Notes: generated by a model from the sequence alone, not told the origin. A stretch of DNA of 64,000 nt from Synechococcales cyanobacterium VAR_4_metabat_354 (GCA_031414775.1 JANOQI010000042.1:32001-96000); one strand, 5' to 3'; shown: positions 1,863 through 41,013, numbered from the stretch's first letter. Numbers and translations are program-made.

Positions 1863-3149
1863 ATGAATGAAGATTCTACCGATGTCACTTCTGATCAACT
1901 AGGGCAACTTAAACATCTAAGCGAAGTTAAGTTTACTGGGATGCTGACCATTCAAGCCTCGATTACCCAGTGGTCAATATTGTTTGATCAAGGCAAAATT
2001 GTGTGGGCGATCGACAATATTTCCCCCCATCGGTTTTGGCAACGGCAACTGCTCCGGCATTTACCCCACATCAGCCTCGATCAGTTAGCAAAAGTGCCCC
2101 AGAGTCTAAAGCCGGAAATCCAACCAGAAGTGAGTTGGCCTTATCTGGCGCTGGTACAACTGCATGTCGATGGTCAAATCGATAGTCAAAAATTGGGATC
2201 GCTGTTAGCTGATGGTGCCCAAGACGTCTTTTTCGATATTTTGCAAATTAGCCATACCGAAAAACTTACCTATCATCACAATAGCTGCCGCTGGTCTCAA
2301 GTACCACCAATCGTCATGACCTTGGATAAGTTGATAGTCACGCCTCTGCAAGAATGGCAAGAGTGGCAAAAATGGCAACTAACTGATATTTTTCCAGACC
2401 ATATTCCAATAATTGATTACCCGACTGATCTTCACCGACAAACCAGTACTGCTATTTACGATAGCCTGCAAAGAATTTTTGCACCTCCACCAGCGGCTCA
2501 GGGTATTGATGACCATTACTCCCTCCGCGAAATTGCTATTCGACAACAGCAAGATCTATTGCTGCTTGCCAGATCCTTGCGACCTCATCTCCAGCAAAAA
2601 ACAATTAGCTTGCACCCTCTGTTCCAGGATTTGCCTCAGCCTGTTCTTGCCGTACAAAAGCCTCTGGTGGCGGTAGAAGAATCCTTGGTTGAGAAAGAAG
2701 AAGTCACAATAGTAGGATCGATCGGATCTCCACCCGCTTTTCCAGCACCTGTTATTTTGCAGGGCGTAGTTGCCTATATTGATGACAATGCTCAAGCCAA
2801 TCAACATATGGCCGACATGATCACGGGCATTGGCTATCAATTTCTGGGAATTAAAGATCCCAGCGAGGCTATAGATATAATGCATCAGCAACAACCCAAT
2901 TTAATTATTATGGAAGCTGCCATGCCACTCACCAGCGGGCGGCAAATTTGTCAGCAAATCCGGCGGTCTGGCAACTTAGCAAAAGTACCAGTAATCCTGA
3001 TTGTCGATCAAGAAAATTTAGCCGAACGGATACTAGCTAAGTTAGCTGGAGCCGCCAGTACTATTACTCATCCTTTGGACTGCGATAAGGTAAGAAAGCT
3101 AATTCAGCGCTACCTAGATAATTCGCTAAGCATCAAACAGGTTAGCTAA
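1863..3149 (+). CDS. PatA-family response regulator (PATAN domain + degenerate C-terminal receiver)
   Basis: N-terminal FTGMLTI..QWSILFDQGKIVWA..HRFWQRQL (PATAN); C-terminal VAYIDD..PNLIIMEAAMP..G..IC..IR..PVI..AKLAGA receiver fold. Confidence 0.88.
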   Translation: MNEDSTDVTSDQLGQLKHLSEVKFTGMLTIQASITQWSILFDQGKIVWAIDNISPHRFWQRQLLRHLPHISLDQLAKVPQSLKPEIQPEVSWPYLALVQLHVDGQIDSQKLGSLLADGAQDVFFDILQISHTEKLTYHHNSCRWSQVPPIVMTLDKLIVTPLQEWQEWQKWQLTDIFPDHIPIIDYPTDLHRQTSTAIYDSLQRIFAPPPAAQGIDDHYSLREIAIRQQQDLLLLARSLRPHLQQKTISLHPLFQDLPQPVLAVQKPLVAVEESLVEKEEVTIVGSIGSPPAFPAPVILQGVVAYIDDNAQANQHMADMITGIGYQFLGIKDPSEAIDIMHQQQPNLIIMEAAMPLTSGRQICQQIRRSGNLAKVPVILIVDQENLAERILAKLAGAASTITHPLDCDKVRKLIQRYLDNSLSIKQVS

Positions 3150-7972: not shown

Positions 7973-8614
7973 TTGGGAATAGAATTGCGTAGTTTTGTCT
8001 TTTTAGACAATCTGCAACCACAGCACGCCGCATATATGGGAACTGTTGCCCAAGGATTTTTGCCTTTGCCTGGGGATAGCTCACTCTGGATTGAGATTTC
8101 ACCAGGGATTGAGATCAATAAAATTACCGATATTGCACTCAAATCTGCTTCGGTCAAGCCCGGAGTCCAGATTGTGGAGCGGTTGTATGGATTGCTAGAA
8201 ATTCACTCCAGCTCTCAGGGCGAAACTAAGGCCGCCGGGCGGGCAATTTTGGATTATTTAGGCGTTAAAAAAAACGAAGGAATTAAGCCTCGGGTGGTTT
8301 CCAGTCAGATTATCCGGAATATTGATGCCTATCAAACCCAATTGATTAATCGGATGCGGCGTGGTCATATGCTATTGGCTGGGCAAACGCTCTATGTTTT
8401 AGAGGTAGAGCCAGCTGCTTACGCCGCGTTAGCTGCCAACGAAGCTGAAAAATCAGCGTCCATTAATATCCTAGAAGTGCAGGCGGTGGGAAGTTTTGGT
8501 CGCTTATATTTAGGTGGCTATGAACGAGATATTTTGGCGGGAGCCGCTGGGGCTTTAGCGGCGATCGAAGGGGTAGCTGGCCGGGACAAATCTCGGCATC
8601 AGCGCTTGGAGTAA
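7973..8614 (+). CDS. ccmP: Carboxysome tandem-BMC shell protein CcmP
   Basis: [83 protein letters not shown]; 213 aa; TTG start. Confidence 0.92.
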
Positions 8615-8619
8615 AGTAA

Positions 8620-9222
8620 ATGATTGATGCTGCGGCTTTTGCGGGTAAAGATTTACGCGATCGAGATTTCGCCTTGGCCGATTTGTCAGGAGTGGTGTTC
8701 GATCGATCGGATTTAAGCGGCGTTAATTTAGTGGGAGCCAATCTGCGCGGAGCCAGTTTCCAGGGCGCTGCGCTCACTGGTGCCAATTTGGTGGGAGCAG
8801 ATCTGAACGGGGCTAATTTGCACCAGGCCGATCTAGGGGACGCTCATCTGCACCGGGCTAATCTCTGTTTTGCAAACCTGCGAGCTACTAATTTAATTGG
8901 AGCGGACTTGAATATGGCCAAGCTGTTTGAAGCTGAAGCCCAAGGAGCCTATTGCTACTGTGCCGATTTGAGCTACGCTGACCTGACCCAAGCGCATTTA
9001 GCTGGAGCTTATTTGGTTCGATCGAACCTTAGTTATGCCAATCTCCAAAATGCTGATTTACGCTGGTCTAATCTGCATAATGCCAACTTAGCTGCCGCCA
9101 ATGTGCGGCAGACGCAGTTTAACTATGCCCAGTACCTTCAGCAGTCTCAGCTGGCAGCGGCACAATATTGGCAAGAGGCCAGCTACGATTTATTTAATAT
9201 GGGCGCAAGCAGTTCAGCTTAA
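8620..9222 (+). CDS. Pentapeptide-repeat protein
   Basis: Continuous A(D/N)Lxx repeats; starts 5 nt after ccmP. Confidence 0.93.
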   Translation: MIDAAAFAGKDLRDRDFALADLSGVVFDRSDLSGVNLVGANLRGASFQGAALTGANLVGADLNGANLHQADLGDAHLHRANLCFANLRATNLIGADLNMAKLFEAEAQGAYCYCADLSYADLTQAHLAGAYLVRSNLSYANLQNADLRWSNLHNANLAAANVRQTQFNYAQYLQQSQLAAAQYWQEASYDLFNMGASSSA

Positions 9223-9223
9223 T

Positions 9224-10066
9224 CTAGCCATGCTTGCGCAAAAAGCTCTTGATATCAGTAGTAAAGACATTAAAATTCTGAAAATCTGTATTTTTAGGTT
9301 TTAGTGCCGAAGGATCGATCGCGACGGGCAAGCTCTGAAAATCTGGAACCACTTCTTTGACCAAATCAGTCATCATCAGCCGCAGTCCAATTTGTTGAAC
9401 AGTTAGGATTGGTAAGTCAATCTCCTCGGAAATCTTGGCAATGCTGGTGTAGCCATTCGCTAATTCCCATACCTGTATTTCTTGAGTATCTAGTTTAAAA
9501 GCAGGTAAATCAGACCGTAGCTTTTTTAGAGCTTTGTTTGTTGCTGGTAGCTGATTTGTAAAGGGATTCCAATTTCTTAAAACCCTTAATCCGAGTAGAA
9601 TAGCTTCGGCGGCAGCAATACTCATTCCAGTCATTTCTGACCAGACCAAAGGTGTTTTCTCATCAAAATGAAATTCTCCCTGATCAGTTTTAAACAAGGT
9701 GCAAATTGGTTGAATAATTTGAGCCTGAAATAATAACCTTAATTGTTCAGTGTCTAAAGCATTATTTTCATGTAAATATAATCCTAGGGGCTGCTCTAGC
9801 GAATTTAGTTGACAGTGCTCCGTAAATATATCTGCGGGCGACATTAATTTACGTTTTTTAATCATTCCTAGTAATCCAGTATGTTCTAAATCTCTGGCCA
9901 CTGCCATAATTCGGCCACTTTGGAACCAAACATAGTAAGGAGCTACCGAAATTTCCATTTTGTTATTCACAGCAGTTAATGATAGCAAACCAGTTCTAAA
10001 ACCGCGCTGAATAAATTGAAATATTTTAGCTAATGAATGTTCTGATAAATATCCCTGAAAAGCCAT
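9224..10066 (-). CDS. DUF4388 (PATAN-like) protein with C-terminal winged helix, copy c (most diverged)
   Basis: MAFQGYLSEHSLAKIFQFIQRGFRTGLL..YVWFQSGRI; C-terminal LDTQEIQVWELANG..SIAKI..VQQIGLRLMMTDLVKEV. Confidence 0.88.
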   Translation of the reverse strand: MAFQGYLSEHSLAKIFQFIQRGFRTGLLSLTAVNNKMEISVAPYYVWFQSGRIMAVARDLEHTGLLGMIKKRKLMSPADIFTEHCQLNSLEQPLGLYLHENNALDTEQLRLLFQAQIIQPICTLFKTDQGEFHFDEKTPLVWSEMTGMSIAAAEAILLGLRVLRNWNPFTNQLPATNKALKKLRSDLPAFKLDTQEIQVWELANGYTSIAKISEEIDLPILTVQQIGLRLMMTDLVKEVVPDFQSLPVAIDPSALKPKNTDFQNFNVFTTDIKSFLRKHG

Positions 10067-10156
10067 GGAAAAATCCGGTATGGAGCACTATTAAAAATGT
10101 GCCAATTACAACAGACTAATAAAATCAGAGATTTTGAGGTGTTAAATTGGCGATAT

Positions 10157-10253
10157 CTCATTTATACAATAGCTATTCATCTAAATCATTCAGTAAGATT
10201 ACTCATATTTAGAACAGTTGTTTTTCCATCTAAAAAAGCTCAGTAATTACACG
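10157..10253 (-). promoter_or_regulatory. Putative promoter and operator of DUF4388 copy c
   Basis: CTCATTTATAC (10157-10167; minus strand GTATAAATGAG, -10-like) and TCAGTAATTACACG (10240-10253). Both recur exactly, with the same 83-bp offset, at 12895 and 12978. Confidence 0.6.
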
Positions 10254-10322
10254 AAATATCGCCCTGTCAACACGAGGTTAACAGAGCTATTCACCAGTAT
10301 TAATCACTCGTTATCGCAAATA

Positions 10323-10874
10323 TTAAACTAGTTGGCCGAGAAGTTTTTCAGCCATACACTGCTCTAGTAGAACCGTAATGGCTTCAGCCACTGAATCTTG
10401 TTTATTAGCATCGACTAGCATGATCGGTGGTCGGGGCATATCTGGCAAATAACCCAGTGCTAAGGTCACATTTTCTGGAGACCAAGCACCAGCGCAATCA
10501 TTGTGAGTTACCCCAATCATCATCGGAATTGTCATCCGTTGATTCATGAAGTTCAAAATGCGGCGAGCTTGGTGAAATTCACTGGGTCGATGAGCAGCCA
10601 CCAGCAAAATATAGGCATGAGCCTTGCTAATTAAAATATCCCACATGAAATTAAAGCGGGCCTGACCGGGAGTTCCATAAATATGCAAAGCCATTTCGGG
10701 ACTAAAAGTTAGTTTGCCAAAGTCCATGGAAACAGTAGTATTTTGCTTGATTTCGGTAACTTCATCAGTAGCCTGCCGATCGGTATCTACTACTTCAATT
10801 TCACTGATCGATCGAATAAAAGTAGTTTTACCAGCACCTACACAACCAGTGACAACTAAACGCATAACTTCCAT
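10323..10874 (-). CDS. Small GTPase, MglA/CvnD-like ATP/GTP-binding protein, copy 1
   Basis: G1 GCVGAGKTT, G2 TTVSMDFG, G3 YGTPGQARF, G4-position THND. Confidence 0.92.
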   Translation of the reverse strand: MEVMRLVVTGCVGAGKTTFIRSISEIEVVDTDRQATDEVTEIKQNTTVSMDFGKLTFSPEMALHIYGTPGQARFNFMWDILISKAHAYILLVAAHRPSEFHQARRILNFMNQRMTIPMMIGVTHNDCAGAWSPENVTLALGYLPDMPRPPIMLVDANKQDSVAEAITVLLEQCMAEKLLGQLV

Positions 10875-10878
10875 ATTT

Positions 10879-11736
10879 CTATACTCGCTTCTTCAAGAAG
10901 CCCACTAAATTACTCATGAATGACTTAGATAAAGCCGATTTGCTAGCTCCAGTTTTGGTAGGAAGAGCATCTGTAGCGATTGCCAGTTTTGCTGGTGATG
11001 GTAAAACTAGATCTAAGACAATTTCTTTCACCAATCCGACTGCAACCAACCGATAACTAATTTGTTGTACTTTTTCTAATGCTATATTTATTTTCTGTGC
11101 AATTTGAGTAATACTAATGTCAGCATTAGCTAGTTCCCACACCTGAATTTCTTGAGTATCTAGTTTAAAAGAGGGCTTTTCAGGATAGAGTCTTTGTAGA
11201 CCAAAATCGGGAGCAGGCAACTTGTGTTCAATCAAGCTCCAGTCCCGCAAAACTCTTAAACCTAGTAAACTTGCCTCGTTAGCATTCATACTAATTCCGG
11301 TCATTTCAGGATAAGCTAGCGGTGATTGTTCATCAAAAGAAAATTTAGCATCAGTAATTTTAAAGAGTCCGCATACCGGTTGCAAAACTTGCGAATGAAA
11401 CAGTAGGCGGAGTTGTTCAGTATCCAGACCACCCGTAGATTTAAGATACAAACCCAAAGGTTGATTGGTTGATTTCAACTCTTGACGTAAAGCAGCTAAA
11501 TTATCAACATCAACCCATGCGCGCTGAGCAATCATCGAAAGTAATCCTAGCTTGCTTAAGTCTCTGGCATGAGCCGTAAGCCGACCATTTTGGAACCAAA
11601 TATAGCTAGGATTGATGAATGTTTGAACAGAGTCGTTATCTGGATTAATCGATAACAAACCAGTCTTGTAACCTTGCTGAATAAATTGAAATATTTCTGC
11701 TAGTGAGTATTCGGATAGAGATCCTGCAAGAGCCAT
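10879..11736 (-). CDS. DUF4388 (PATAN-like) protein with C-terminal winged helix, copy a
   Basis: MALAGSLSEYSLAEIFQFIQQGYKTGLL..YIWFQNGR; wHTH-like C-terminal region; tail SKSFMSNLVGFLKKRV. Confidence 0.9.
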   Translation of the reverse strand: MALAGSLSEYSLAEIFQFIQQGYKTGLLSINPDNDSVQTFINPSYIWFQNGRLTAHARDLSKLGLLSMIAQRAWVDVDNLAALRQELKSTNQPLGLYLKSTGGLDTEQLRLLFHSQVLQPVCGLFKITDAKFSFDEQSPLAYPEMTGISMNANEASLLGLRVLRDWSLIEHKLPAPDFGLQRLYPEKPSFKLDTQEIQVWELANADISITQIAQKINIALEKVQQISYRLVAVGLVKEIVLDLVLPSPAKLAIATDALPTKTGASKSALSKSFMSNLVGFLKKRV

Positions 11737-11830
11737 GATGGTCTCCAGTGAAGAAAATAATTAATAATAGTTAAAGAACAATAGATATTTATCTACAAAG
11801 ACTAAATGAAGAGTTATTTGAAACAATATA

Positions 11831-11874
11831 AAGAACCAATTCCTGTATTTTGTCAATTATAGGAACTGGCTCTT
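11831..11874 (-). terminator. Stem-loop between roadblock copy 1 and DUF4388 copy a
   Basis: Minus strand AAGAGCCAGUUCCU...AGGAAUUGGUUCUU, 14-bp stem with two G-U pairs, followed by a U-rich tract. Confidence 0.65.
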
Positions 11875-11890
11875 ATTAAGCCCCAATAGA

Positions 11891-12253
11891 CTAGTTTAAT
11901 TCTGCTTTGATCGCTACAACAGCTTTTTTGATATCGAGCATTAATAGACCTTGTTTAGCCGATTGACTAGCCAAAACTAGCAATACAGCGTCTACGCCAC
12001 AACCAGTCAAAATACCGTAGCCAGTGTCGCCTTCTACCATGATGCGATCGACAGTGCCCCGGGATAGCTCTATCCCAATTCGCTCACCCAAGGAGAGCAT
12101 CGCTGCCGACATCGCCGAAGTCCGATCTTCGTCCATACCAGTAGGCAGAGAAGAGGCCAAAGGTAATCCATCTGGGGACACTAAGGCAGCACCTTGAACA
12201 TCGGATGTGCCCGAGACGAATTCTTGTAAAATAGTTCCAATTTTTCCGGACAT
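11891..12253 (-). CDS. Roadblock/LC7 (MglB/CvnB-like) protein, copy 1
   Basis: VQGAALVSPDGLPLAS..DEDRTSAMSAAMLSLGER..IMVEGDTGY..VLLVLA..KQGLLMLDIK. Confidence 0.93.
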   Translation of the reverse strand: MSGKIGTILQEFVSGTSDVQGAALVSPDGLPLASSLPTGMDEDRTSAMSAAMLSLGERIGIELSRGTVDRIMVEGDTGYGILTGCGVDAVLLVLASQSAKQGLLMLDIKKAVVAIKAELN

Positions 12254-12306
12254 GATTTCCTCAATTTAGGTAGTTAGTTTTTTAGTGAAAGTAGTCGTTA
12301 GTGAAG

Positions 12307-12777
12307 TTAGCCTAAAGCTTTGAATTCAAATATGTCATAAGCACTGCCGCGCAAAACAGACTCAGTGTGAGAACCTTGCAAGCGATGACCAGTTACTGCT
12401 TCTAAAGCTCCCCAAACGGCACCCAAGGTGAAGGTACATTTGCGGCTAGAACCCATTTCTTCCCCAGCCGAACAAACAGTTTCAGTGCAATAAACTTTGA
12501 TATTGTCGCCGTCTTGCTCAGCCTTATTAATAGCAGTCAAACGAGTACCGTTTTGGCCAACAGCAGCATCCAATTTAGCGGCAATCTCAGCGATCGGCAG
12601 ATTGGAACCAGCTAAACCGAGGCTCGTAGCTAAAGCCTTGCCCCGAGCGCGGCCAGCCGCAATCAAAGAGATCGCAGTAGCTTTTTCACCGAGAGCATCT
12701 TCCATACCAGTAATTACAGACTTGAAGCAAACAATGCTGCTGAAGTCGCCAAGATTTTCGCGAATAGCGATAGGCAT
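12307..12777 (-). CDS. Stand-alone V4R-domain (small-ligand binding) protein
   Basis: MEDALGEKATAISLIAAGRARGK..VYCTETVCSAGE..CTFTLGAVWGALEAVTG..HTESVLRG..FEF. Confidence 0.8.
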   Translation of the reverse strand: MPIAIRENLGDFSSIVCFKSVITGMEDALGEKATAISLIAAGRARGKALATSLGLAGSNLPIAEIAAKLDAAVGQNGTRLTAINKAEQDGDNIKVYCTETVCSAGEEMGSSRKCTFTLGAVWGALEAVTGHRLQGSHTESVLRGSAYDIFEFKALG

Positions 12778-12894
12778 AATTGATTTTCCTTGATTTATAA
12801 ATCGGGGTTGGTAGTCAGAGCTGATTCGTTAGCACTGGAGACCGATAAAATTTTTGCAAACGGCTCTCTGTAATTGATATCAGCGTTGCTACTC

Positions 12895-12991
12895 CTCATT
12901 TATACGATACGTCTACCAGTGATAAATCCGTGAGACCACCAATGTTTGAGGTGGGAATATTCAGATCACCGCAAAATTCAGTAATTACACG
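12895..12991 (-). promoter_or_regulatory. Putative promoter and operator of the V4R-roadblock-DUF4388-GTPase unit
   Basis: CTCATTTATAC at 12895-12905 and TCAGTAATTACACG at 12978-12991, identical in sequence and spacing to 10157/10240. Confidence 0.6.
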
Positions 12992-13118
12992 TATTAAGGC
13001 ACTTGAACCAGATTATTGATAGTAGTAGATTAGTTGAAATCCTGAAAAGCTCGGTAATCATTACGCGCGATTACCTAGAAGGCGATATTTAGAGTGAATA
13101 AGTGCATAGCAAAAACAA

Positions 13119-13667
13119 CTACATGGTAGCCACTGATTCTTCTGGCATACACTGCTCTAACAACACCATCACTGCCGCAGCCACGGATTCTTGTTCATTA
13201 GCATCTACTTGCACGATCGGTGGTCGATACATATCTGGCAAATAGCCTAGGGCTAATGCGACATTTTCTGGAGTCCAAGCACCATCACAATCATTATGAG
13301 TCATTCCGATGATCATCGGAATGGCCATCCGTTGATTCATAAAGTTCAAAATGCGGCGAGCTTGGTGAAACTCACTGGGACGGTGAGCAGCAACTAGCAA
13401 AATATAGGCATGAGCCTTGCTAATTAAAATATCCCACATGAAATTAAAACGTGCTTGACCGGGAGTCCCATAGATGTGCAAAGACATTTCGGGGCTAAAA
13501 GTTAGTTTGCCAAAGTCCATGGAAACAGTAGTCGTTTGTTTCATATCAGCAACTTCGTCAGTAGCTTGTCGATCGGTGTTTACTACTTCAATTTCACTGA
13601 TCGATCGAATAAAAGTAGTTTTACCAGCACCCACGCAACCAGTGACCACCAAACGCATAATTTCCAT
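13119..13667 (-). CDS. Small GTPase, MglA/CvnD-like, copy 2
   Basis: Same G1-G4 motifs; near-identical to 10323-10874 over most of its length. Confidence 0.92.
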   Translation of the reverse strand: MEIMRLVVTGCVGAGKTTFIRSISEIEVVNTDRQATDEVADMKQTTTVSMDFGKLTFSPEMSLHIYGTPGQARFNFMWDILISKAHAYILLVAAHRPSEFHQARRILNFMNQRMAIPMIIGMTHNDCDGAWTPENVALALGYLPDMYRPPIVQVDANEQESVAAAVMVLLEQCMPEESVATM

Positions 13668-13671
13668 ATTT

Positions 13672-14526
13672 CTATACTTTCTTCTTTAAGAAGCTCATTA
13701 AATTACTCATGAATGACTTAGACAAAGCTGGTTTGCTAACTTCGTTTCTAGCTAGGGATTGATCGGCAGGCGCGCTCTTTTTTAATACTGGCGGAGCCAG
13801 TTCTAGAGCAATTTCTTTGACTAAGCCCACTGCGGCTAGCCGATAACTAATTTGTTGCACTGTGGTTAGGGCTAGCTCCGTTTTTTTAGCAATTTGAGCA
13901 AGGCTAATATTACCACTGGCTAATTCCCAAACCTGCATTTCTTGCGTATCGAGTTTAAGAGCTGTTAATTCAGGGGAAAGTTTTTTCAGGCCAAAGTCAG
14001 CAGTTGGTAGCTTATCTGCCAGCAAGCTCCAGTCGCGCAACACTCTTAAACCTAGCAAACTCGCTTCCCCCGCCGTCATACTCAGCCCCGTCATTTCTGA
14101 ATAGGCGAGGGGCAGCTTTTCATCGAAAGCAAACCGGGCATTGGCTAACTTGAAAAGTCCGCATACTGGCTGCAAAACCTGCGAACGAAACAACATCCGT
14201 AGTTGCTCGGTGTCTAGAATCCCTCTAGACTTAAGATACAAACCTAGCGGCTCATTCATTATTTCAAATTTTTGCTGTAGATAAGATAAATCTTTATCCA
14301 CTGCCCAGCCCCGTTGATCAATCATCATTAGCAGTCCTAGGTGGCTTCGGTCTCGGGCATGAGATACAATCCGCCCATTGCGAAACCAAATATAGCTAGG
14401 AAATATGTTTGATTGAATAGAATAATGATCAGGTTCAATTAATAACAAACCGGTTTTATATCCTTGCTGAACAAATTGAAATATTTCTACTAGTGAGTAT
14501 TCAGACAGAGATCCGGTAAGAGCCAT
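13672..14526 (-). CDS. DUF4388 (PATAN-like) protein with C-terminal winged helix, copy b
   Basis: Paralog of 10879-11736. Start set at ATG 14526 (MALTGSLSEY) with GGAG RBS, as in copy a. Confidence 0.9.
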   Translation of the reverse strand: MALTGSLSEYSLVEIFQFVQQGYKTGLLLIEPDHYSIQSNIFPSYIWFRNGRIVSHARDRSHLGLLMMIDQRGWAVDKDLSYLQQKFEIMNEPLGLYLKSRGILDTEQLRMLFRSQVLQPVCGLFKLANARFAFDEKLPLAYSEMTGLSMTAGEASLLGLRVLRDWSLLADKLPTADFGLKKLSPELTALKLDTQEMQVWELASGNISLAQIAKKTELALTTVQQISYRLAAVGLVKEIALELAPPVLKKSAPADQSLARNEVSKPALSKSFMSNLMSFLKKKV

Positions 14527-14623
14527 GATGGTCTCCAGTAAAGAAAAAATTAAAAGTAGATATGGTAGAGAAAATAAAAGATGCCTGATTGAAAAGAATA
14601 TATGGAGAGCCGCTAGCAACAAC

Positions 14624-14677
14624 AGAAGAACTAGTTCCCGTATTTTATGAACAGTAGGAAACAGTTCTAGTTCTCCT
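14624..14677 (-). terminator. Stem-loop between roadblock copy 2 and DUF4388 copy b
   Basis: Minus strand AGGAGAACUAG...CUAGUUCUUCU outer stem with inner UUCCU/GGGAA; same position as the hairpin at 11831. Confidence 0.6.
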
Positions 14678-14691
14678 TCAACTACACTAAC

Positions 14692-15048
14692 TCAACTCAA
14701 CTCTGCTTTGATGGCAATGACAGCTTTTTTGATATCTAGCATCAATAAACCTTGCTTAGCAGCTTTGCTGGCCAAAACGAGAAACATTGCATCTTCGCCA
14801 CAGCCGATCAAAATGCCATAACCAGTATCGCCTTCTACCATGATGCGATCGACATTACCGCGAGCTAGTTCTTTACCAATGCGTTCACCCAAGGACAGCA
14901 TCGCTGCCGACATCGCCGAAGTGCGGTCTTCATCCATACCCACCGGCAAAGAAGAAGCCAAAGGTAATCCATCTGGAGATACTAAAGCTGCACCTTGGAC
15001 ATCAGCAGTACCCGAAACGAATTCTTGTAAAATGTTTCCAATTGACAT
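14692..15048 (-). CDS. Roadblock/LC7 (MglB/CvnB-like) protein, copy 2
   Basis: Close paralog of 11891-12253; GAGG RBS. Confidence 0.93.
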   Translation of the reverse strand: MSIGNILQEFVSGTADVQGAALVSPDGLPLASSLPVGMDEDRTSAMSAAMLSLGERIGKELARGNVDRIMVEGDTGYGILIGCGEDAMFLVLASKAAKQGLLMLDIKKAVIAIKAELS

Positions 15049-15248
15049 GATTTCCTCAATTTAGTTGTTTTGTGTTGATGGTGATTGATTTACATGATTA
15101 GCACCAGCCAAACCGAAGCTCTTAGCTAAGGACTTAGGTAATTTGGATTTCAGAATATTTATACATAAAGCTCCCAATGTATAATAATATCAGCATCACT
15201 ACCATCCATTTGATTAGCTAAGACAACAAAAAATCATTAGTATTGCAT

Positions 15249-16693: not shown

Positions 16694-17701
16694 ATGGACG
16701 ATAACAAACAGCAAATAGTTCACTATTTTATTGAGGAAGCCCAAGAACATTTGGATGTTGTGGAACAGGGTTTGCTAGATTTGGGCGAAGTTATTAAAGA
16801 TGCCGATCGAGTCAATGAAATGTTTCGGGCCGCGCACTCCGTCAAAGGCGGTGCCGCCATGCTGGGCTTTGAGAGTATCCAAAAAACTGCTCACGAACTA
16901 GAAGACTGCTTTAAGGTGATGCGTGATCACTCAGTACCTGTCGATCAGCAATTAGAAACTATGTTCCTGAAAGGCTACGATACCTTAAAAGAGTTAGTCG
17001 GTGAGCTGGCCAATTCACCCACTCTCACCCTCCGCCCCGAAATCGTTGATCCCATTGTGCAGGGTTCCCGCGCCAACTTTATTGAACTCAAAGAGTATTT
17101 GAACGACTTACTGAGTATGGCTACAGTTAGTCCTGATTCTATGCCAGCCTTCCAACCAGCGGCGGCTGTTGCTACGGTTGTCAGTAGTGCTCCCACCGCT
17201 GTCATCGCTCCACCTGTCAACATCACAGCGAAGGTCATGGAAAATCTCCGCGCGATGTTGGGAGCTTTTAAACAGGGTGAAGCCAATGCTCCCCGCCACC
17301 AAATTTGTAGCTACAGCCAAAATTTATCGGCTTTTGGTCAAGATACAGCTAGCTGGCAAAATGTTTTAAGGATTGCCAATCAAGCTATCAACAATGCGAC
17401 CAACACTTATGAATCACTAGCTCCAGTCGTCATCAAAGACCTCAAACTGGCTGGCGATTTGTTGGCTGTCGGGCGAGGATCTGAAATATTGCCAAGTCCG
17501 GCACTTCAAGAATTAGCTTTGGCCTCAGCGCCAGTCGTAAAAACAGTCGTGCCCTCTCCACCAGCGGCACCAGCTCAAATCTCGATTCCTTTAGATTCAC
17601 GGGCGGCTGCTCAAGCAATTCTCCGCAGCTTCAACCGTCAGCAAGTCACTGAATTGGTTGTGCTATTACACCGTGCTATTAATATTCCTAAGCAAAACTA
17701 G
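16694..17701 (+). CDS. Stand-alone Hpt (CheA P1-like) phosphotransfer protein
   Basis: [33 protein letters not shown]; no HATPase or CheW domain follows. Confidence 0.88.
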
Positions 17702-25342: not shown

Positions 25343-26713
25343 TCAAATAACTGGGACAAAATTTTTAACTGTAGAGACTATTTCGGTCACGTTCACATCT
25401 AATTGCTCTCTGGTTGCCAAAACCTTGACTTGGCATCTACCAGCAGCCTGCTCTGTGGCACCTTGAATAATAGCGATCAATATCCCCATTTTTTCGGCTT
25501 TTTTGAGTTGGTCACCGAGCTTACTCGCTTCAAAGTTGGTAACAGTGGCAATTCCGGCCTGACGCAATTGTTGAGAAATTTGCAGATAGCCAGGCATCAG
25601 CGACCTGTCGAGATTGAGCACCACCACCTGGGCGGGGGTCGGCGCAAGGGGCTGTACTAATTTTTCTTTGAGTAAATTTTTGATGAGGCGGGTGAGTCCG
25701 ATCGAGATACCCACGCCGGGTAATTCCTCTCCAGCAAACAGTCCGACTAACTCGGCATAACGACCACCCGAACAAATGCTGCCCAGACTTTCGTAACCCA
25801 GCAGAGTTGTTTCATAAACAGTACCGGTGTAATAGCCTAAGCCTCTAGCGATCGATAGGTCAATACAAAATTGATCGATCGGCACTTGCAGATCGCGAAC
25901 TCCTTGGATCACCTCTTGTAATTCGGTGATGCCAGTGGCCAGCTCTTCGGTATTACTGAGTCCGGCAGCCATTGTCGTTAGTTTAGTGAGGATCTCGTCG
26001 GGACTGCCTTTAATCTGGGTAAAATCAATCACGGCCTGAGCTTGAGTAGCAGTGACTCCGATCTTTTCTAGCTCGGCTTGGACTTTGGTAATGCCGATTT
26101 TATCCAGCTCATCCACAATATTGATGCAAGCTTTGGCTAACTCCGGTGCAATGCCCGTCGCCAGTAAAAACCCCGTCAAGACCTTTCGGTTATTAATCCG
26201 GATCAGAAACTTGCCAATGTTTAACTGGGTAAAGATCTCGGCGATGATCGCAGGCATCTGGGCATCGTAGAGCAAATCGAGCTTACCTCTGCCCACCACA
26301 TCAATATCACACTGCCGAAACTGACGATAGCGACCAGCCTTAGCTCGTTCGCCCCGAAATACCATATCCATTTGGTAGCGGGCAAAGGGAAAGGTTAAGT
26401 CGTTAAGATGACGGGCAATATAGGCGGCTAGTGGTAGGGTTTGGTCAAACTTCAGACCTCGATCGATATCCCCTTCGTCAATATTGGCCACTAACGGACT
26501 AATGCCATAGATGATGTTGTCACCCTGCGCACCTTTGGCCTGCAATACAGCCAGCCGTTCCACTGCCGGGGTCTCGATTGGGGTAAAGCCATAGCGCTCA
26601 AATACACCGCGAATGGTGTCCAGAAACTGCTGTTCTAGACGCTTTTCCCCTGGTAAGAACTCAATATCGAAACCACTGGGGAGAGTATAGTTAAGTTTTT
26701 CGGATTTACTCAT
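25343..26713 (-). CDS. hisS: Histidine--tRNA ligase (FDxTxP class)
   Basis: GFTPIETPAVE, GLKFDQTLPLA, VFRGERAKAGRYRQFRQCDID, IARGLGYYTG, CSGGRY, GISIGLTR, anticodon-binding domain. Confidence 0.93.
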   Translation of the reverse strand: MSKSEKLNYTLPSGFDIEFLPGEKRLEQQFLDTIRGVFERYGFTPIETPAVERLAVLQAKGAQGDNIIYGISPLVANIDEGDIDRGLKFDQTLPLAAYIARHLNDLTFPFARYQMDMVFRGERAKAGRYRQFRQCDIDVVGRGKLDLLYDAQMPAIIAEIFTQLNIGKFLIRINNRKVLTGFLLATGIAPELAKACINIVDELDKIGITKVQAELEKIGVTATQAQAVIDFTQIKGSPDEILTKLTTMAAGLSNTEELATGITELQEVIQGVRDLQVPIDQFCIDLSIARGLGYYTGTVYETTLLGYESLGSICSGGRYAELVGLFAGEELPGVGISIGLTRLIKNLLKEKLVQPLAPTPAQVVVLNLDRSLMPGYLQISQQLRQAGIATVTNFEASKLGDQLKKAEKMGILIAIIQGATEQAAGRCQVKVLATREQLDVNVTEIVSTVKNFVPVI

Positions 26714-27747
26714 TTTTTATTTTCGAGGACGGCGGCCAGCTGCTTGCTATGGCGAGATTCCGAGCCAAATATATAGTTAGGTGCAAAAACGGTAATATCG
26801 GTACCGCCAGTTTGACGTAAGTGATTGACGGCTTCACGCCAGCTAGCTTGATGCACAACGATGGTCACGGCATACCAATTAGGCTCTAGAACAGAGTAAA
26901 CCTTGGCAATGGTGGGGCCGCGCATCCCGGTCAATTCAGCTAGCTCTGAACTTTTGAGCAGCCGTTTGCCCAATTCATCGGCACTTTCGCCCTGAATATT
27001 GGCCGTAATAGAGGTGAATTTTTTTGCTTCCAGCTGGGCTTCGATCGAATCCAAAATCAGCTTGGTCACTTCCTGCTTGCGGCGATCGTTTTGCAGCAGC
27101 CGCTTGTTGGCAATAATACAGGCTTGGGATTTGAGCATCGGATCGCCGGTAATCGGCTTCAGGCGATTTTCGCGTAAGGTGGTGCCGGTACTACTCACAT
27201 CGGCAATCATATCGGCATAGCCCATCTTGGGGGCAGCTTCTAAGGCTCCGTTGGCTTCTACTAGCGAGAAGTGGACAATCTGGTGTTTCTTCAGCCATTC
27301 ACGGGTCAGGTTGGGATATTTGGTAACAATGCGCAGGTTGCGACCTTTATTTTCCCGGAAATCCATGGTTAGATCAGCCAGATCGGCCATCGAGACAATA
27401 TCAATCCAGCTATCGGGTACGGCCAGTACCAACTCACAGCGGCCAAACCCCAACTCAGGATAAATATCTACTACATGGTTGTAGCCAGCGCTTTCTTCGG
27501 CATAAATATCGTAGCCAGTGATGCCTAGGTCTACGCTACCTTCTTGCACTTTAGTGAAAATATCAGCGGCTCGTTGAAAGATTACTTCCACATCGGGCAG
27601 CGCCGAGATGGTTCCGACATATTGTCGGTCGTTAGGCCGGGATACTTTGAGACCGGCGGCGGCCAATAGCTCTGAGGTCGATCGCTCTAGGGCACCTTTA
27701 CTGGGAATCGCCAGCCGCAGTTTTTGATCGTCACGTTTTTGGTTCAT
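26710..27747 (-). CDS. hisG: ATP phosphoribosyltransferase, long form with C-terminal regulatory domain
   Basis: LAIPSKG, DLGITGYD, GFGRCEL, TKYPNLT, GALEAAP..GYAD.IAD..STGTTL.EN.L; C-terminal GMRGPTI domain. ATGA overlaps with both neighbours. Confidence 0.95.
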   Translation of the reverse strand: MNQKRDDQKLRLAIPSKGALERSTSELLAAAGLKVSRPNDRQYVGTISALPDVEVIFQRAADIFTKVQEGSVDLGITGYDIYAEESAGYNHVVDIYPELGFGRCELVLAVPDSWIDIVSMADLADLTMDFRENKGRNLRIVTKYPNLTREWLKKHQIVHFSLVEANGALEAAPKMGYADMIADVSSTGTTLRENRLKPITGDPMLKSQACIIANKRLLQNDRRKQEVTKLILDSIEAQLEAKKFTSITANIQGESADELGKRLLKSSELAELTGMRGPTIAKVYSVLEPNWYAVTIVVHQASWREAVNHLRQTGGTDITVFAPNYIFGSESRHSKQLAAVLENKK

Positions 27748-29294
27748 TGTTCGATGTTCTCGGCTAGGGTCTCGGAGTTCTTTAGATTCTCGGGCTGAAT
27801 CTGCTGAATCGCTTCTTCGATTGTGAGTAACTGTTGATCGGTGCTGGCCATGTTTTTGAGTTGGACTTTTTGCACTTGTTGTTCTTCGGAACCAACAATA
27901 ATCACGAAGGGAATACCCTGTTTGTTGGCCTGTTGGAGATTGTGAGGCACCCGTTTGTGACGGATATCTAGCTCAGCGCTAATGGCGGCTTGGCGCAGTT
28001 GGGTGGTAATGGCGATCGCATAACCGGCATCATCTGGAGTCACGGGCACTACTAATACTTGAGTGAGCATCGCCTCTGGCTCTAATTTGCCTTCTTGTTC
28101 TAAAGCTAAGCGCAGCCGTTCTAAACCAAAAGAACAGCCAGTGGCTGGTGTTGGCTCACCGCCCAAATTAGCGACAAGTTCATCGTAGCGACCACCGCCG
28201 CATAGTTGGCGACCATCACCTAAAGCGCTGTGATGTACCTCAAACACCATGCCGGTGTAATATTGCAATCCTCTGCTTAAGCCTAGATCGATCGTAATCT
28301 TGTTGTTGTTGAGCTGGTGGAACTCCAACAGTCCCGAAATTTCTTGCAGGGCATTCAGGGCAGAGCTATCACAGCCATGTTTAGTCAGCAAAACGGTGGC
28401 AGCGGCAAAAACCTGTAAAGGACTGCCTTGAATTTGACCGAGTTCTTTCATGAAATCCAGTGCTTGCTGAATCTGCTTGGTTTGGTCTTGGCGTTTAAAC
28501 TTGGTTAACAGTCGATCGGCAATTTCGGCTTCACTGCGATTGCCACTCAGTTCGATATTCAGGTTGTCGAGCAACTCTAGAATGGTTTGCTTGGCTTCTT
28601 CTTCATCTTGCCCCCGAAAGAGCTGGCCGAGATTGCCAGTTGGTCGATCCGTTGCGTCATCAAACCCTGGATAGATATCCCGCAGCAGACCATGCACATG
28701 CTCCCGACCTTCCTCTGTCCGCATTTTGGCCATATTGGTCAGTAGCAACGTCCGCAGACGGCTTTCTAAGCCCAACGATTCTAAAAACTTGGCCAAGATG
28801 CCCATATGGCCAACTACCACCTGATAGTCGGTAATTCCCAACTTTTCGAGGCAATGACAAGCAGCGGCAATGACTTCGGCATCGGCCATCGCGCCCGCCG
28901 CTCCAATCAGCTCGATACCCACCTGGGTAAACTGCCGATAACGGGCATATTGGGGTCGTTCGTACCGAAAAACTGCGCCATTGTATTGCAAGCGTACTGG
29001 CAAAGACATCGATTGTTGGCTATCGACATAGGCCCGCGCCACGGAAGCGGTGATTTCTGGCCGCAAGCATAGGTGACGGTTTTGATAGACAAAATCGTAC
29101 ATCTTGGTGATGATTTCTTCGCCAGATTTGCGCAGATAGAGATCTTCATGCTCTAAGATGGGCAGCTCGATCGATCGATATCCAAAGGATTGGAAGCACT
29201 GCTGGATTTTGGTGGCGATCTGTTGCTGATGAACGCTTTCGATCGGCGATACATCGTTAGTGCCACGCACTCGTTCTACTTTGCTAGGTTGCAT
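27744..29294 (-). CDS. HisRS/HisZ-family protein with enlarged insertion domain and retained anticodon-binding domain
   Basis: LRPEITASVAR, FRYERPQ..RYRQFTQVG.E, SRGLQYYTG, CGGGRYD, SFGLERL; insertion containing GNRSEAEIADRLLTK; C-terminal HGTP-type anticodon domain. Confidence 0.88.
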   Translation of the reverse strand: MQPSKVERVRGTNDVSPIESVHQQQIATKIQQCFQSFGYRSIELPILEHEDLYLRKSGEEIITKMYDFVYQNRHLCLRPEITASVARAYVDSQQSMSLPVRLQYNGAVFRYERPQYARYRQFTQVGIELIGAAGAMADAEVIAAACHCLEKLGITDYQVVVGHMGILAKFLESLGLESRLRTLLLTNMAKMRTEEGREHVHGLLRDIYPGFDDATDRPTGNLGQLFRGQDEEEAKQTILELLDNLNIELSGNRSEAEIADRLLTKFKRQDQTKQIQQALDFMKELGQIQGSPLQVFAAATVLLTKHGCDSSALNALQEISGLLEFHQLNNNKITIDLGLSRGLQYYTGMVFEVHHSALGDGRQLCGGGRYDELVANLGGEPTPATGCSFGLERLRLALEQEGKLEPEAMLTQVLVVPVTPDDAGYAIAITTQLRQAAISAELDIRHKRVPHNLQQANKQGIPFVIIVGSEEQQVQKVQLKNMASTDQQLLTIEEAIQQIQPENLKNSETLAENIEQ

Positions 29295-36685: not shown

Positions 36686-38392
36686 ATGCAAGTTTGGCAA
36701 AATAACCAAGAAATTAAAAATGGTAGGTTTCTGATCCAGAAGGTTTTAGGAGCTGGTGGATTTGGGATTACCTACCTGGTGGTGGAGCAACAGACTCATA
36801 AACCATACGTCATTAAAACTCTTAATCATCTCCAACAAAATCGGGCAGACTTCATCGATCGACAAGAAAAATTCGTAAATGAAGCGCTGATTTTGAAAGA
36901 ATGCCGACATCCCCATATTGTGCAGGTATATGAGCTGATCCAAGAAGATGGTTTGTGGGGGATTGTGATGGAGTATGTCGAGGGTGAAGAACTAGCCCAC
37001 TATACCGACGAAAAAGGTCAGTTGGCCGAATCGGAAGCCTTGATCTATATCGATCAAATGAGTCAGGCTTTGGCTTATGTGCATCAACGGGGCTTTTTGC
37101 ATCGAGATATCAAGCCCCACAATATTTTGCTTCACAAAAATACCCAGCAAGCGATATTAATTGACTTTGGGCTGGCGCGGGAGGTGGTATCTGGTCGTCA
37201 GGCCAGCATGACTAATTCTACTACTGCCGGTTATGCGCCGATCGAACAATATCATCAGTCTAGTCCGGCTGGTCCTTATTCGGATGTTTATGCTTTAGCC
37301 GCGACCCTCTATCACTTGTTGACGGCACAAGTGCCGATGCCCTCTACGTTTCGCAGTTATGCGCCCCTGCCGCCACCCCAGCATTTCAACTCCCAGATTA
37401 GCGATCGAGTAAATGCCGCGATTGTCCAGGCATTGCACCAAGAGCATCAGCACCGGCCCCAGACGATGGCTGAGTTTCGGGAGTGTTTGGGGCTAGCCGT
37501 GATCACCCCAGCTCTGGGTAGCGCCCCCCCATCCACTTTGAAGACTCCAGTCGTAGACAGTTTGGATGTGGCCAGTTGGCAGCAGACGTTGGTGGCGGCT
37601 AGCAATCAGGCTGGTTTGAACGTTGCCGCCCAGCCAGTGGCCACCTCCCGAAAAACCGTTTTGCGTTCGGGTAGTTTTTGGCGGGGTAAAAATGTAGAGC
37701 TAGAGATGCTGTACATTCCAGACGGTGAGTTTCTGATGGGTGCACCAAGTGATGAAGTGGGCAGCTTGGCCAGCGAGAGACCCCAGCATCGGGTGCAGAT
37801 GCTATCTTTCCACATGAGTAAGTTCCCGATTACTCAGGAGCAATACTTGGCGGTGATAGGTAGAAATCCTGCCAAATTCATTGGTGAGCGCCGCCCGGTA
37901 GAAAGAGTTTCCTGGCATGATGCGACCGAGTTTTGCGAGCGCCTATCCAGCCAATCTGATCGGTTATATCGATTGCCCACCGAAGCGGAGTGGGAATATG
38001 CCTGTCGTGCTCAAACGACTACCGTCTTTTCCTGCGGCAAAAGTATTTATGCCAATTTGGCTAACTATAATCACAGCAACCATACCGGTAAGTTTGAATC
38101 CAATTTGGTGCGGCGAAAAACTAGTGCCGTCGATATTTTTCCGGCTAATAACTTTGGATTACATGATCTGCATGGCAATGTTTGGGAATGGTGTGCCGAT
38201 AATTATCATGCTAATTATGAGGGCGCGCCTGCAGATGGCGATGTTTGGTCAGCAGAGATCGAGCGAGAGCGTCGGATGCTCCGAGGCGGAGCGTGGGGGT
38301 GTCGTGCCCAGGAATGTCGATCGGCTGCTCGGCATTGGGAATTAGCCGTGAATCGCAGTAACAAAATTGGTTTCCGAGTGGTATGTAATTAA
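36686..38392 (+). CDS. Ser/Thr protein kinase fused to FGE-sulfatase (SUMF1) domain
   Basis: GAGGFG, HRDIKPHN, DFG, GYAPIE; C-terminal RLPTEAEWEYACRA, NNFGLHDLHGNVWEW, GFRVV. Confidence 0.94.
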   Translation: MQVWQNNQEIKNGRFLIQKVLGAGGFGITYLVVEQQTHKPYVIKTLNHLQQNRADFIDRQEKFVNEALILKECRHPHIVQVYELIQEDGLWGIVMEYVEGEELAHYTDEKGQLAESEALIYIDQMSQALAYVHQRGFLHRDIKPHNILLHKNTQQAILIDFGLAREVVSGRQASMTNSTTAGYAPIEQYHQSSPAGPYSDVYALAATLYHLLTAQVPMPSTFRSYAPLPPPQHFNSQISDRVNAAIVQALHQEHQHRPQTMAEFRECLGLAVITPALGSAPPSTLKTPVVDSLDVASWQQTLVAASNQAGLNVAAQPVATSRKTVLRSGSFWRGKNVELEMLYIPDGEFLMGAPSDEVGSLASERPQHRVQMLSFHMSKFPITQEQYLAVIGRNPAKFIGERRPVERVSWHDATEFCERLSSQSDRLYRLPTEAEWEYACRAQTTTVFSCGKSIYANLANYNHSNHTGKFESNLVRRKTSAVDIFPANNFGLHDLHGNVWEWCADNYHANYEGAPADGDVWSAEIERERRMLRGGAWGCRAQECRSAARHWELAVNRSNKIGFRVVCN

Positions 38393-38404
38393 AGAGTCCA
38401 GACT

Positions 38405-40089: not shown

Positions 40090-41013
40090 TTATTCAACTA
40101 TCTGGTATTTCTTTGTTCTAGGTTTCCACCCAAAAAACAACCGACCAAAATCCTCAACTGTTTCATCTCCATCAGTGCCAATCAAATCCTCTGGCTCCTC
40201 CTCCAGCTCCCGGAGATAATGCTTCAAAACTCCACCAGTGGCAATCGCTCGCATGTTATGGAGTTGGGTGGTCAGTTCTAGGAACCACTCCCGATTAGCC
40301 ACCATATCGCTTTCCTTCGTACAATACTTCAATAGCTCTGGCACTAAAATTGCAGGGTTGCTATCTTTTCTAATGGCCTGGACATCAATAATCGGGCTAT
40401 AGTCCACCCGCAGTGATTCCTGCCACAACTCCACCCACTTAGACTGTTTTATATATCCATGTGTAAAGTAGCTAGACGGAACCATGAGTAGGCAATGAAA
40501 GTGGGGGTGCGCATTCCCATCCTTACCCCTAGTTACTTCGGTCGATCGAAGCCAGCCAATCGCAGGAAAAGCTTTTCTCTCGACCAGGCGCTTAAAGCTC
40601 TTATTCATCTCAGTTAGAGTGCGCCGCAATTCTGAAATTGGCACATTCTTCTGTGTAAACGTCACAAATAACCACCGATGAGATGGGTATTTTTCAACTA
40701 TTTTCGGTAGAACCTGATAAGCTTTTGCCTTCCACTTTAGCGATCGTCGCCATTGACACACGGGACAGTGCCTCACTCTACAAAATCTACTATTCCTGAG
40801 CTTCAGCTTTAAGGTATCATCGTCGGCTGGATGTATCCCAAATTCTAATAATTGGCTACAAAAGCTAATCCTCTCGGAGTAACGCTCAAACTTAGACCCT
40901 GCATAGTGAGACTGTACAGTATCAGCAAACGCCCGATGCTTTTCCCACGGCTTATCCCGGGGCGAAATCTCAGATAGTAATAATTTTGTACTATTGGAGC
41001 TGCTAGTACTCAC
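40090..41013 (-). CDS. rep: Rolling-circle replication initiator, Rep_1 (pC194/pUB110-like) HUH endonuclease
   Basis: C..CRVRHCPVC, motif I FVTFT, motif II HPHFHCLL, motif III LLKYCTKESD; uninterrupted 307 aa. Confidence 0.93.
   Translation of the reverse strand: MSTSSSNSTKLLLSEISPRDKPWEKHRAFADTVQSHYAGSKFERYSERISFCSQLLEFGIHPADDDTLKLKLRNSRFCRVRHCPVCQWRRSLKWKAKAYQVLPKIVEKYPSHRWLFVTFTQKNVPISELRRTLTEMNKSFKRLVERKAFPAIGWLRSTEVTRGKDGNAHPHFHCLLMVPSSYFTHGYIKQSKWVELWQESLRVDYSPIIDVQAIRKDSNPAILVPELLKYCTKESDMVANREWFLELTTQLHNMRAIATGGVLKHYLRELEEEPEDLIGTDGDETVEDFGRLFFGWKPRTKKYQIVE

Follow-up and report, generated by a model that had tools for sequence, protein, structure and literature searches.

The small GTPases of MglA Groups 2-5 lack the arginine finger (PMC4316618), and section 15 of the same survey gives the absence of this finger from the G2 motif, together with a GTPGQ G3 motif, as their signature. 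The supplement of that 2014 survey lists cyanobacterial Group 5 operons that carry MglB and one to three PATAN genes (PMC4316618), so the roadblock-PATAN-GTPase core has already been catalogued. Here, we describe a duplicated operon of this kind at positions 9224-15048 (minus strand) of a 64,000-nucleotide (nt) stretch of DNA, hereafter the window, from Synechococcales cyanobacterium VAR_4_metabat_354 (GCA_031414775.1 JANOQI010000042.1:32001-96000; genome 3.56 Mb, 99.96% complete). An operon of four genes, encoding a V4R protein, a roadblock protein, a DUF4388/PATAN-winged helix-turn-helix (wHTH) protein and a GTPase, is duplicated in tandem at this locus, which also has a third PATAN gene. 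DUF4388 is the PATAN domain, which binds PilB1 and PilC in Synechocystis (bioRxiv 10.1101/2021.06.11.447907). In the Mfp system, the roadblock protein is the GTPase-activating protein (GAP), and the winged-helix CvnC homologue is the likely guanine nucleotide exchange factor (PMC13343842).

In the literature that we searched, we found no study of the input, catalysis or output of MglA Group 5, and no paper joining DUF4388, roadblock and GTPase, or protoglobin, cyanobacteria and roadblock. The search gave only the 2014 survey, work on Myxococcus and Thermus, globin surveys and a paper on Asgard TRAPPC3, which agrees with a preliminary description of this DNA that knew of no functional characterization of such a module. 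The core operon is thus catalogued but unstudied; the part worth testing, which we did not find in print, is a possible interchangeable input from V4R or protoglobin.

Two copies of an MglA Group 5 operon

We found eight uninterrupted open reading frames in the order roadblock-DUF4388-GTPase, V4R-roadblock-DUF4388-GTPase and DUF4388, all on the minus strand and, as first described, intact. Copy 1 consists of a roadblock/MglB-like protein of 118 amino acids (aa) (14692-15048; PF03259, E 1e-16), a 284-aa DUF4388 (PATAN) protein with a winged helix and a C-terminal amphipathic helix (13672-14526; PF14332, E 1e-23) and an MglA-family, Group 5-like small GTPase of 182 aa (13119-13667; PF03029, E 2.5e-14). 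The start of this first DUF4388 gene is most likely the ATG at 14526, missed in the preliminary description. Copy 2 begins with a stand-alone V4R/Bet3-fold protein of 156 aa, the candidate sensor (12307-12777). It is followed by a roadblock/MglB-like protein (120 aa; 11891-12253; PF03259, E 2e-16), a DUF4388 protein with the same winged helix and amphipathic tail (285 aa; 10879-11736; PF14332, E 5e-25) and an MglA-family GTPase (183 aa; 10323-10874; PF03029, E 5e-13). The locus ends with a third DUF4388-wHTH protein (280 aa; 9224-10066; PF14332, E 2e-24), which is more divergent and whose motif at the C terminus is degenerate. The Robl_LC7, DUF4388 and ATP_bind_1 profiles exceeded their cut-offs in the expected proteins, and the DUF4388 match covers residues 4-167 in all three family members (E 1e-23 to 5e-25). 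The intergenic gaps in transcription order are 162-165, 4, 341, 53, 154, 4 and 256 nt, confirming a DUF4388-to-GTPase spacing of 4 nt in both copies.

The roadblocks are 88% and the GTPases 85% identical between the copies, while DUF4388 copies 1 and 2 share 66% identity and the third DUF4388 protein 45-48% with both. At the DNA level, the copies are only 77.6% identical over 1.9 kb. Moreover, one public contig (run X1, 10820-13425), possibly from the source sample, spans the copy junction with zero differences, and a diverged strain in a second study (run X7) has sequence of both copies, in pieces. Thus, the duplication is not an assembly artefact. Among the gaps listed for run X7 is one of a single base at window position 13772, in the linker of the first DUF4388 gene. 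No additional copies of the operon genes were found elsewhere in the genome.

In an alignment of 54 relatives, both GTPases have an intact P-loop, a threonine instead of an arginine beside the G2 threonine, and a GTPGQ G3 motif. In our tree, they fall in a clade (support 100/98) with GTPases of Thermosynechococcus and thermophilic Synechococcus, adjoining Thermus and Deinococcus, and separate from CvnD (100/99) and the proteobacterial rows (100/99); among the named rows, a Chamaesiphon genome lies nearest. The tree took congeners of the listed Group 5 members and not the exact proteins of the 2014 table. The coupled roadblock and the frequent PATAN neighbour of Group 5 are both found here. The G4 motif of both copies, Thr-His-x-Asp, departs from the [NT]KxD given for Group 5; because its histidine is nearly invariant in 52 cyanobacterial rows, we regard it as a deviation within the clade and not as grounds for exclusion. 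Motifs, gene neighbours and the clade with congeners of listed members together assign the GTPases to MglA Group 5 on sequence criteria. The locus encodes a predicted MglA/MglB-type switch, as had been proposed. The GTPases have neither the G2 arginine finger nor the G3 TVPGQ of Group 1, which contains the Myxococcus and Thermus polarity proteins. A sequence search of the PDB with the V4R protein or a single GTPase returned nothing useful, and a GTPase profile found only Arf/Ras proteins (E ~1e-7).

A V4R protein or a protoglobin accompanies the GTPase in most genomes

The 156-aa protein itself has no match to Pfam PF02830 (V4R) above the cut-off, but 5 of 52 aligned homologues do (best E 1.3e-11), and many homologues are annotated "predicted hydrocarbon binding protein" in their source records. 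Its AlphaFold2 (AF2) model, with a predicted local distance difference test score (pLDDT) of 91.7, matched the sensor domain of PoxR best (Z 15.9, root-mean-square deviation 3.1, 141 residues aligned), followed by DmpR (Z 15.1), MJ1460 (Z 14.2), Thorarchaeota TRAPPC3 (Z 13.1) and Bet3 (Z 12.7), and Foldseek agreed; H-NOX domains scored well below (Z 6-8). In the homologue alignment, serine and a near-invariant aspartate stand where the usual V4R zinc motif has its two distal cysteines; we take these C-terminal positions to be those of the canonical motif. Conserved positions of the protein include Cys114, His137 and Asp148. The glycine pairs G42/G46 and G119/G123 are invariant or nearly so, and paired glycines are typical of V4R/Bet3 helices (PMC2253512). 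Thus, the V4R label given in the preliminary description holds at the level of predicted structure and of homologues, but not of a profile match for the protein itself, and we conclude from the model that the protein is a V4R. Its sensor-domain fold and its linkage to the GTPase operon also agree with the earlier suggestion of a soluble V4R as the likely input.

We surveyed 301 genomes sampled from the phylum and counted a gene as linked if a GTPase gene lay no more than 3 kb away. All counts of neighbours and of linkage come from reading tables by eye; they are uncorrected for kinship, and related genomes are not independent. The GTPase occurs in 36 genomes (37 with one weak match in a 656-aa frame of G079, excluded), V4R in 25, of which 23 also have the GTPase, and protoglobin in 30. 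Among the 36 GTPase genomes, 26 have a linked protoglobin, 19 a linked V4R and 33 at least one of the two. Ten GTPase genomes, the present one and nine others, have no protoglobin match, and seven of these have a linked V4R. Only one extra neighbour recurred, a stand-alone 184-aa protoglobin (PF11563), found in 12 of 42 loci examined; it carries a conserved histidine, presumably at the position of the proximal haem ligand. Where V4R and roadblock occur together, they are directly adjacent in 29 of 34 loci, across many gene orders. In 54 named, mostly cyanobacterial loci, drawn from the best 79 of over 600 matches and inspected with 4-kb flanks, V4R was present in 27, protoglobin in 27 and both in 16. 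V4R and protoglobin are therefore not strict alternatives.

The exchange of V4R and protoglobin is also seen beyond this phylum: DUF4388, GTPase, roadblock and protoglobin lie together on a plasmid of Thermus thermophilus, and on one of Deinococcus gobiensis GTPase and roadblock are followed by a "hypothetical" protein 54% identical to the present V4R. Protoglobins are listed in Thermosynechococcus and Thermus in a globin survey, which describes their function as little known (PMC1457004). Together, these data suggest that a small soluble sensor, here V4R and in many relatives a haem globin, provides the input by acting on the roadblock regulator. The module had been called sensor-less, which does not fit the pattern in its relatives, where V4R, protoglobin or both fill the slot. 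In our literature search, which covered few subscription papers, the slot was not found in print; Makarova 2006 on PATAN and Koonin and Aravind 2000 on Roadblock lay outside its coverage and might mention V4R or globin neighbours.

Two further neighbourhoods were recorded. Protoglobin-like genes lie beside roadblock and GTPase genes in an unclassified bacterium, a Chloroflexia and a Thiohalomonadales genome (L169, L171 and L191). A NarL-type kinase and a LuxR regulator, often with an LTXXQ protein, lie upstream of the operon in eight loci (L033, L069, L071, L073, L077, L078, L079 and L082); this looks like synteny within related genomes, and we did not accept the pair as part of the module.

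A proposed sensor-gated switch with a PATAN output

We tentatively propose, with slightly more doubt than confidence, that the locus encodes a cytoplasmic sensor-gated MglA Group 5 switch, duplicated in this lineage, in which a signal would pass from the sensor through the roadblock GAP and the GTPase to PATAN and perhaps to the pilus motor, each step being inferred. V4R would bind a small hydrophobic or a redox- or metal-linked ligand and dock on the roadblock dimer; in relatives, a haem protoglobin would feed a gas signal into the same module. The roadblock dimer would serve as a GAP platform, tuned by ligand-bound V4R, and so determine whether the GTPase carries GTP or GDP. The PATAN-wHTH protein, encoded 4 nt before the GTPase, would bind the GTPase as effector or exchange factor, while the conserved amphipathic helix at its C terminus would fix it to the membrane or to a partner. 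From its PATAN domain the signal would go on to a further target, of which the type IV pilus motor is the most plausible. Duplication would mainly have diversified the PATAN adaptors (66% and 45-48% identical).

The AF2 model of DUF4388 copy 2 (pLDDT 87.7) comprises PATAN, a wHTH at residues ~178-245, a disordered stretch (247-267) and a helix (271-284), and supports the C-terminal winged helix noted in the preliminary description. Across the family, a variable linker precedes a conserved terminal helix, which is amphipathic (moment 0.49-0.66) and in most cases basic; in the third DUF4388 copy this helix is degenerate. The membrane helix of MinD offers an analogue, and the terminal helix may likewise anchor the protein at the membrane, or may bind a partner. 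Because the winged-helix CvnC homologue of Mfp is a likely exchange factor, both the effector and the exchange-factor role are open to PATAN-wHTH.

The presence of a winged helix in the model raises another explanation, that it binds DNA and that the GTPase switch controls gene expression. Many of its mid-rank structural matches are transcription factors (Z ~6), a transcriptional role has been proposed for MglA Group 3 (Wuichet 2014, PMC4316618), and conservons act on gene expression indirectly, their mutants showing altered transcription (PMC13343842). However, the top matches of the winged helix (residues ~157-241) are not transcription factors but a GATOR1 chain (Z 10.8, root-mean-square deviation 1.8, 72 residues aligned) and the SEA complex (Z 10.2), followed by a peptidase (Z 9.7) and a methyltransferase (Z 8.8). 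No HTH family exceeded the Pfam cut-off for the window proteins, and work in Synechocystis speaks against PatA-type regulators binding DNA (bioRxiv 10.1101/2021.06.11.447907). We therefore consider a transcriptional output unlikely.

GATOR1 and the SEA complex are regulators of Rag GTPases, and one of 53 DUF4388 members matched HTH_NPRL3 (E 0.0066); since the peptidase and the methyltransferase score nearly as high, we do not read this likeness as homology. The structural match list of the DUF4388 model was filled by the winged helix, with none to the PATAN part listed. The genome has four further DUF4388 matches in 410-437-aa frames, one of which is a PATAN-receiver protein in the window, a PatA-type regulator (DUF4388 and receiver) at 1863-3149 (+), 6 kb from the locus.

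As for the input step of the sensor-gated switch, the complex model of V4R with the roadblock dimer scored 0.43 (0.43, 0.44 and 0.37 in the individual runs), against 0.01 for the best of three controls, with at least 80% contact agreement between runs and a partner pLDDT of at least 87. Of 157 solved complexes, 116 pass the mark applied, as do 2 of 215 mismatches, counts that hold roughly; passes at a score of 0.60 or under comprise 18 of the 157 solved complexes and both mismatches. The model thus lends weak support to a docking of V4R on the roadblock dimer.

The same arrangement could reflect a TRAPP-like platform, in which V4R would be a structural or exchange subunit on the roadblock dimer and the signal would come from elsewhere, in relatives from protoglobin. 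The canonical zinc cysteines are presumably those replaced in this subfamily, the fold is close to that of Bet3 and TRAPPC3 (Z 12.7-13.1), and V4R and protoglobin share 16 of the 54 named loci; in TRAPP, the Bet3 tail drives exchange on the longin-dimer platform (PMC3747258). In the present model, however, no C-terminal extension follows the last strand, and the best fold matches are the ligand-sensing domains of PoxR, DmpR and MopR. Moreover, V4R is not linked in 17 of the 36 GTPase genomes, so it is dispensable. We judge a TRAPP-like V4R to be quite improbable, and a ligand-sensing V4R remains our preferred reading.

Copy 1 has lost its V4R gene

The preliminary description treated the presence of V4R at one copy only as a design of the locus. 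We found instead a 40-nt V4R gene remnant before copy 1 (15096-15135, minus strand), 82.5% identical to window positions 12600-12639. Its best non-self match in the genome is the V4R gene (E 3e-4; next match E 0.54), and among 3000 random genome windows its score was reached only by two that overlap the V4R gene. The remnant is also 85.7% identical over 35 nt to an intact V4R gene at the syntenic place in the closest relative, G007, which has the same upstream genes (DUF2396 and glyoxalase) followed by intact V4R, roadblock, DUF4388 and GTPase. Further upstream, a non-coding stretch that is the probable promoter region of copy 1 (15169-15225, minus strand) is 80.7% identical over 57 nt to the region upstream of the intact V4R of G007 (E 4e-8), a score reached by none of 2000 shuffles. 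In the gene trees, the sister of copy 1 is G007 (GTPase 95/91, roadblock 94/87, DUF4388 100/99), and copy 2 lies outside this pair, still within the genus. Judged by sequence and synteny, the V4R gene of copy 1 has decayed; with the intact syntenic gene of G007 and the trees, the remnant indicates that the unit is one of four genes. The two copies stem either from an old duplication, with the second copy lost in G007, or from tandem acquisition from a sister lineage.

The promoter and terminator scan was uninformative (13 and 3 sites versus 15.8 and 5.3 expected, including a hairpin at 10261-10287). Homology between the upstream regions of the two copies was not significant (241 of 2000 shuffles reach the score), and so does not point to separate promoters. 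The downstream flank of the locus is unlike that of G007.

Within the genus, nine of the 11 other genomes have one GTPase and two have none, so that the present genome alone has two (1 of 12). For the copy 1/copy 2 pairs, dN (nonsynonymous divergence) is 0.06-0.22 and dS (synonymous divergence) 0.6-1.3; the latter marks the copies as old, and dN/dS of ~0.06-0.2 for all paralogue pairs points to purifying selection on both. The third DUF4388 gene forms a long branch inside the genus group (dN ~0.45-0.50, dS >2), and extra DUF4388 genes and repeated operons have arisen independently in other lineages. By itself, the duplication is ordinary and of little weight. It is very unlikely that the second copy and the third DUF4388 gene are redundant leftovers, with copy 1 heading for loss after its V4R: two copies in a single genus member, the V4R loss and broken copies in relatives (G319, G053 and L030) would fit, but all six genes of the duplicated set are intact, the copies are old and dN is much smaller than dS, extra DUF4388 genes have arisen independently in several lineages, and sequence of both copies occurs in the diverged strain of another study.

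Returning to the sensor-gated switch, the high identity of the two roadblocks and the two GTPases, with GTPase residues 63-114 unchanged between copies, makes cross-talk likelier than insulation and does not favour the two parallel channels previously envisaged. Likewise, one V4R, the only one left, probably acts for both of the near-identical roadblock/GTPase pairs. Gene conversion between the two GTPase genes (13122-13667 and 10326-10874) is possible on this sequence pattern and on a dS of the GTPase pair (0.57) below that of the roadblock (1.0) and DUF4388 (1.25) pairs. A perfect 22-nt palindrome within the first GTPase gene (13302-13323) is probably due to chance. Among relatives, G319, G053 and G122 have broken operon or V4R copies, and G017 has a split DUF4388 gene (L089, L091, L092 and L030).

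Discussion

Several observations weigh against the proposed switch. The module occurs in only ~12% of the sampled genomes, and the 2014 table has no Group 5 gene among the Nostoc and Anabaena rows examined (PMC4316618); it therefore cannot be a general pilus-polarity core. Nor did any pilus or taxis gene recur beside the operon in the surveyed loci. Of 25 loci, only 14 have protoglobin directly beside roadblock, two families contribute most of the V4R-roadblock neighbour pairs, and V4R is unlinked in four genomes and broken in three. Sixteen of the 54 named loci have neither sensor within 4 kb, although many of these are ended by contig edges. With a histidine in G4 where lysine is canonical, guanine specificity is a presumption. 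The tool rates complex scores in this range as wrong more frequently than right, and resemblance to solved Bet3-longin complexes may account for the pass. Finally, ligand, binding, GAP activity, localization and phenotype are all predicted.

A wider reading, which we regard as speculative and more probably wrong than right, is that Cyanobacteria and Deinococcota have in common an ancient, modular G-protein receptor system. Small soluble sensors, V4R and/or a stand-alone haem protoglobin, would sit directly on a roadblock dimer and gate an MglA-type GTPase, with PATAN-wHTH taking the output to the pilus motor. If true, this arrangement would parallel, in a bacterial operon, the Bet3-longin-Rab set of TRAPP, would place orphan bacterial protoglobins (e.g., in Thermosynechococcus and Thermus) in a pathway, and would provide a kinase-free gas or chemical input to cyanobacterial motility. 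With candidates for the input (V4R and protoglobin), the docking site (the roadblock dimer) and the output (PATAN to the pilus motor), all within four small soluble proteins, and with culturable strains of Thermosynechococcus, Anabaena, Fischerella, Thermus and Deinococcus that carry homologues, two questions become testable: the role of stand-alone bacterial protoglobins, and whether a Bet3-fold protein acts on a bacterial roadblock-GTPase platform.

The remainder of the window holds other features. On the opposite strand, ccmP and a pentapeptide-repeat gene (7973-9222, +) end 1 nt from the third DUF4388 stop. A 335-aa protein (16694-17701, +) has an N-terminal CheA-like Hpt domain and no kinase domain, and its gene overlaps the start of the next. 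At 25343-29294 (-), hisG lies between two HisRS-like genes that both score above the hisS cut-off; the 516-aa product passes the hisZ cut-off too and keeps its anticodon-binding domain. Tandem Ser/Thr kinase pairs (twice) and a tandem S41 peptidase pair occupy 36686-39718, 48782-51687 and 53593-56552, and a Rep_1 plasmid-type replication protein (40090-41013, -) stands amid housekeeping genes. At the window edge (62133-63988, -) is the end of a chemosensory cluster, with a CheA-like C terminus (HATPase, CheW and receiver) and a receiver protein.

Comparison with known systems

The conservons (AGPS, CvnA-D) and the Mfp system, both of Group 2, share with the present locus a sensor, a roadblock, a winged-helix protein and a GTPase in one operon (PMC13343842), and the G2 and G3 motifs are common to their GTPases and ours. 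Unlike conservons, the locus has no histidine-kinase-like CvnA, and its winged-helix protein is a PATAN-wHTH, not DUF742. A search of the genome with the DUF742 profile gave no match; among 53 DUF4388 proteins there was one, at E 0.069 only, and hhalign of the DUF4388 protein with two DUF742 proteins gave probabilities of 0.3% and 1.0%. As stated in the preliminary description, no CvnA-like kinase is present at the locus, nor was one found in the genome with two Streptomyces CvnA-position queries, whose sole weak match lies in a 1424-aa frame (E 8e-5, 25% identity); a NIT search was empty, though its positive control also gave no match. The GTPases are 31-36% identical to their Streptomyces matches and lie in a clade separate from conservon CvnD. 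Given this, the lack of DUF742/CvnC homology and the shuffled gene order among relatives, the likeness to the cvnB-cvnC-cvnD order is a local coincidence, and the conservon-like label did not stand. We therefore rejected conservon/AGPS (Group 2) membership: CvnA and CvnC (DUF742) were not found in the searches made, the host is not one of the Actinomycetota, and the GTPases are outside the CvnD clade.

The PatA-type regulators PixE and LsiR of Synechocystis share the PATAN/DUF4388 domain, which there binds PilB1/PilC (bioRxiv 10.1101/2021.06.11.447907). Unlike them, the present proteins follow PATAN with a winged helix and an amphipathic tail and have no receiver domain, and the similarity is only distant. 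MglA/MglB of Myxococcus xanthus and Thermus thermophilus (Group 1) share a small GTPase with a roadblock dimer as its regulator. Unlike that pair, the present module has no intrinsic arginine finger and no MglB C-terminal extension, and it has PATAN-wHTH and V4R partners; the polarity role is that of the Group 1 proteins.

The TRAPP core and the Asgard TRAPPC3/roadblock/GTPase set combine the same three folds, V4R/Bet3, a roadblock/longin-type dimer and a small GTPase (PMC10933270, PMC2253512, PMC3747258). In contrast to these, the genes here form one bacterial operon with a PATAN protein, and the GTPase is of the MglA type; in Asgard MK-D1, such genes are generally not in operons (PMC10933270). 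The present V4R is 10-17% identical to Bet3, and an exchange activity like that of TRAPP would be a prediction here.

The closest system is MglA Group 5 itself (PMC4316618; rows tlr1990, CYA_2865, CYB_1482, Cyan7425_5249, Cyan7425_2399, aq_1844 and DR_2180). Like the present GTPases, its members have no arginine finger and a GTPGQ motif, and the listing shows an adjacent roadblock and PATAN, with three PATAN genes at CYA_2865 and two operons in Cyanothece 7425. The table marks no sensor gene, giving unrecognized neighbours as dashes, and names neither V4R nor protoglobin. The locus differs from what the survey states for Group 5 in having a G4 histidine for lysine, and from its listing in the tandem duplication with V4R decay, which is local to the present genome.

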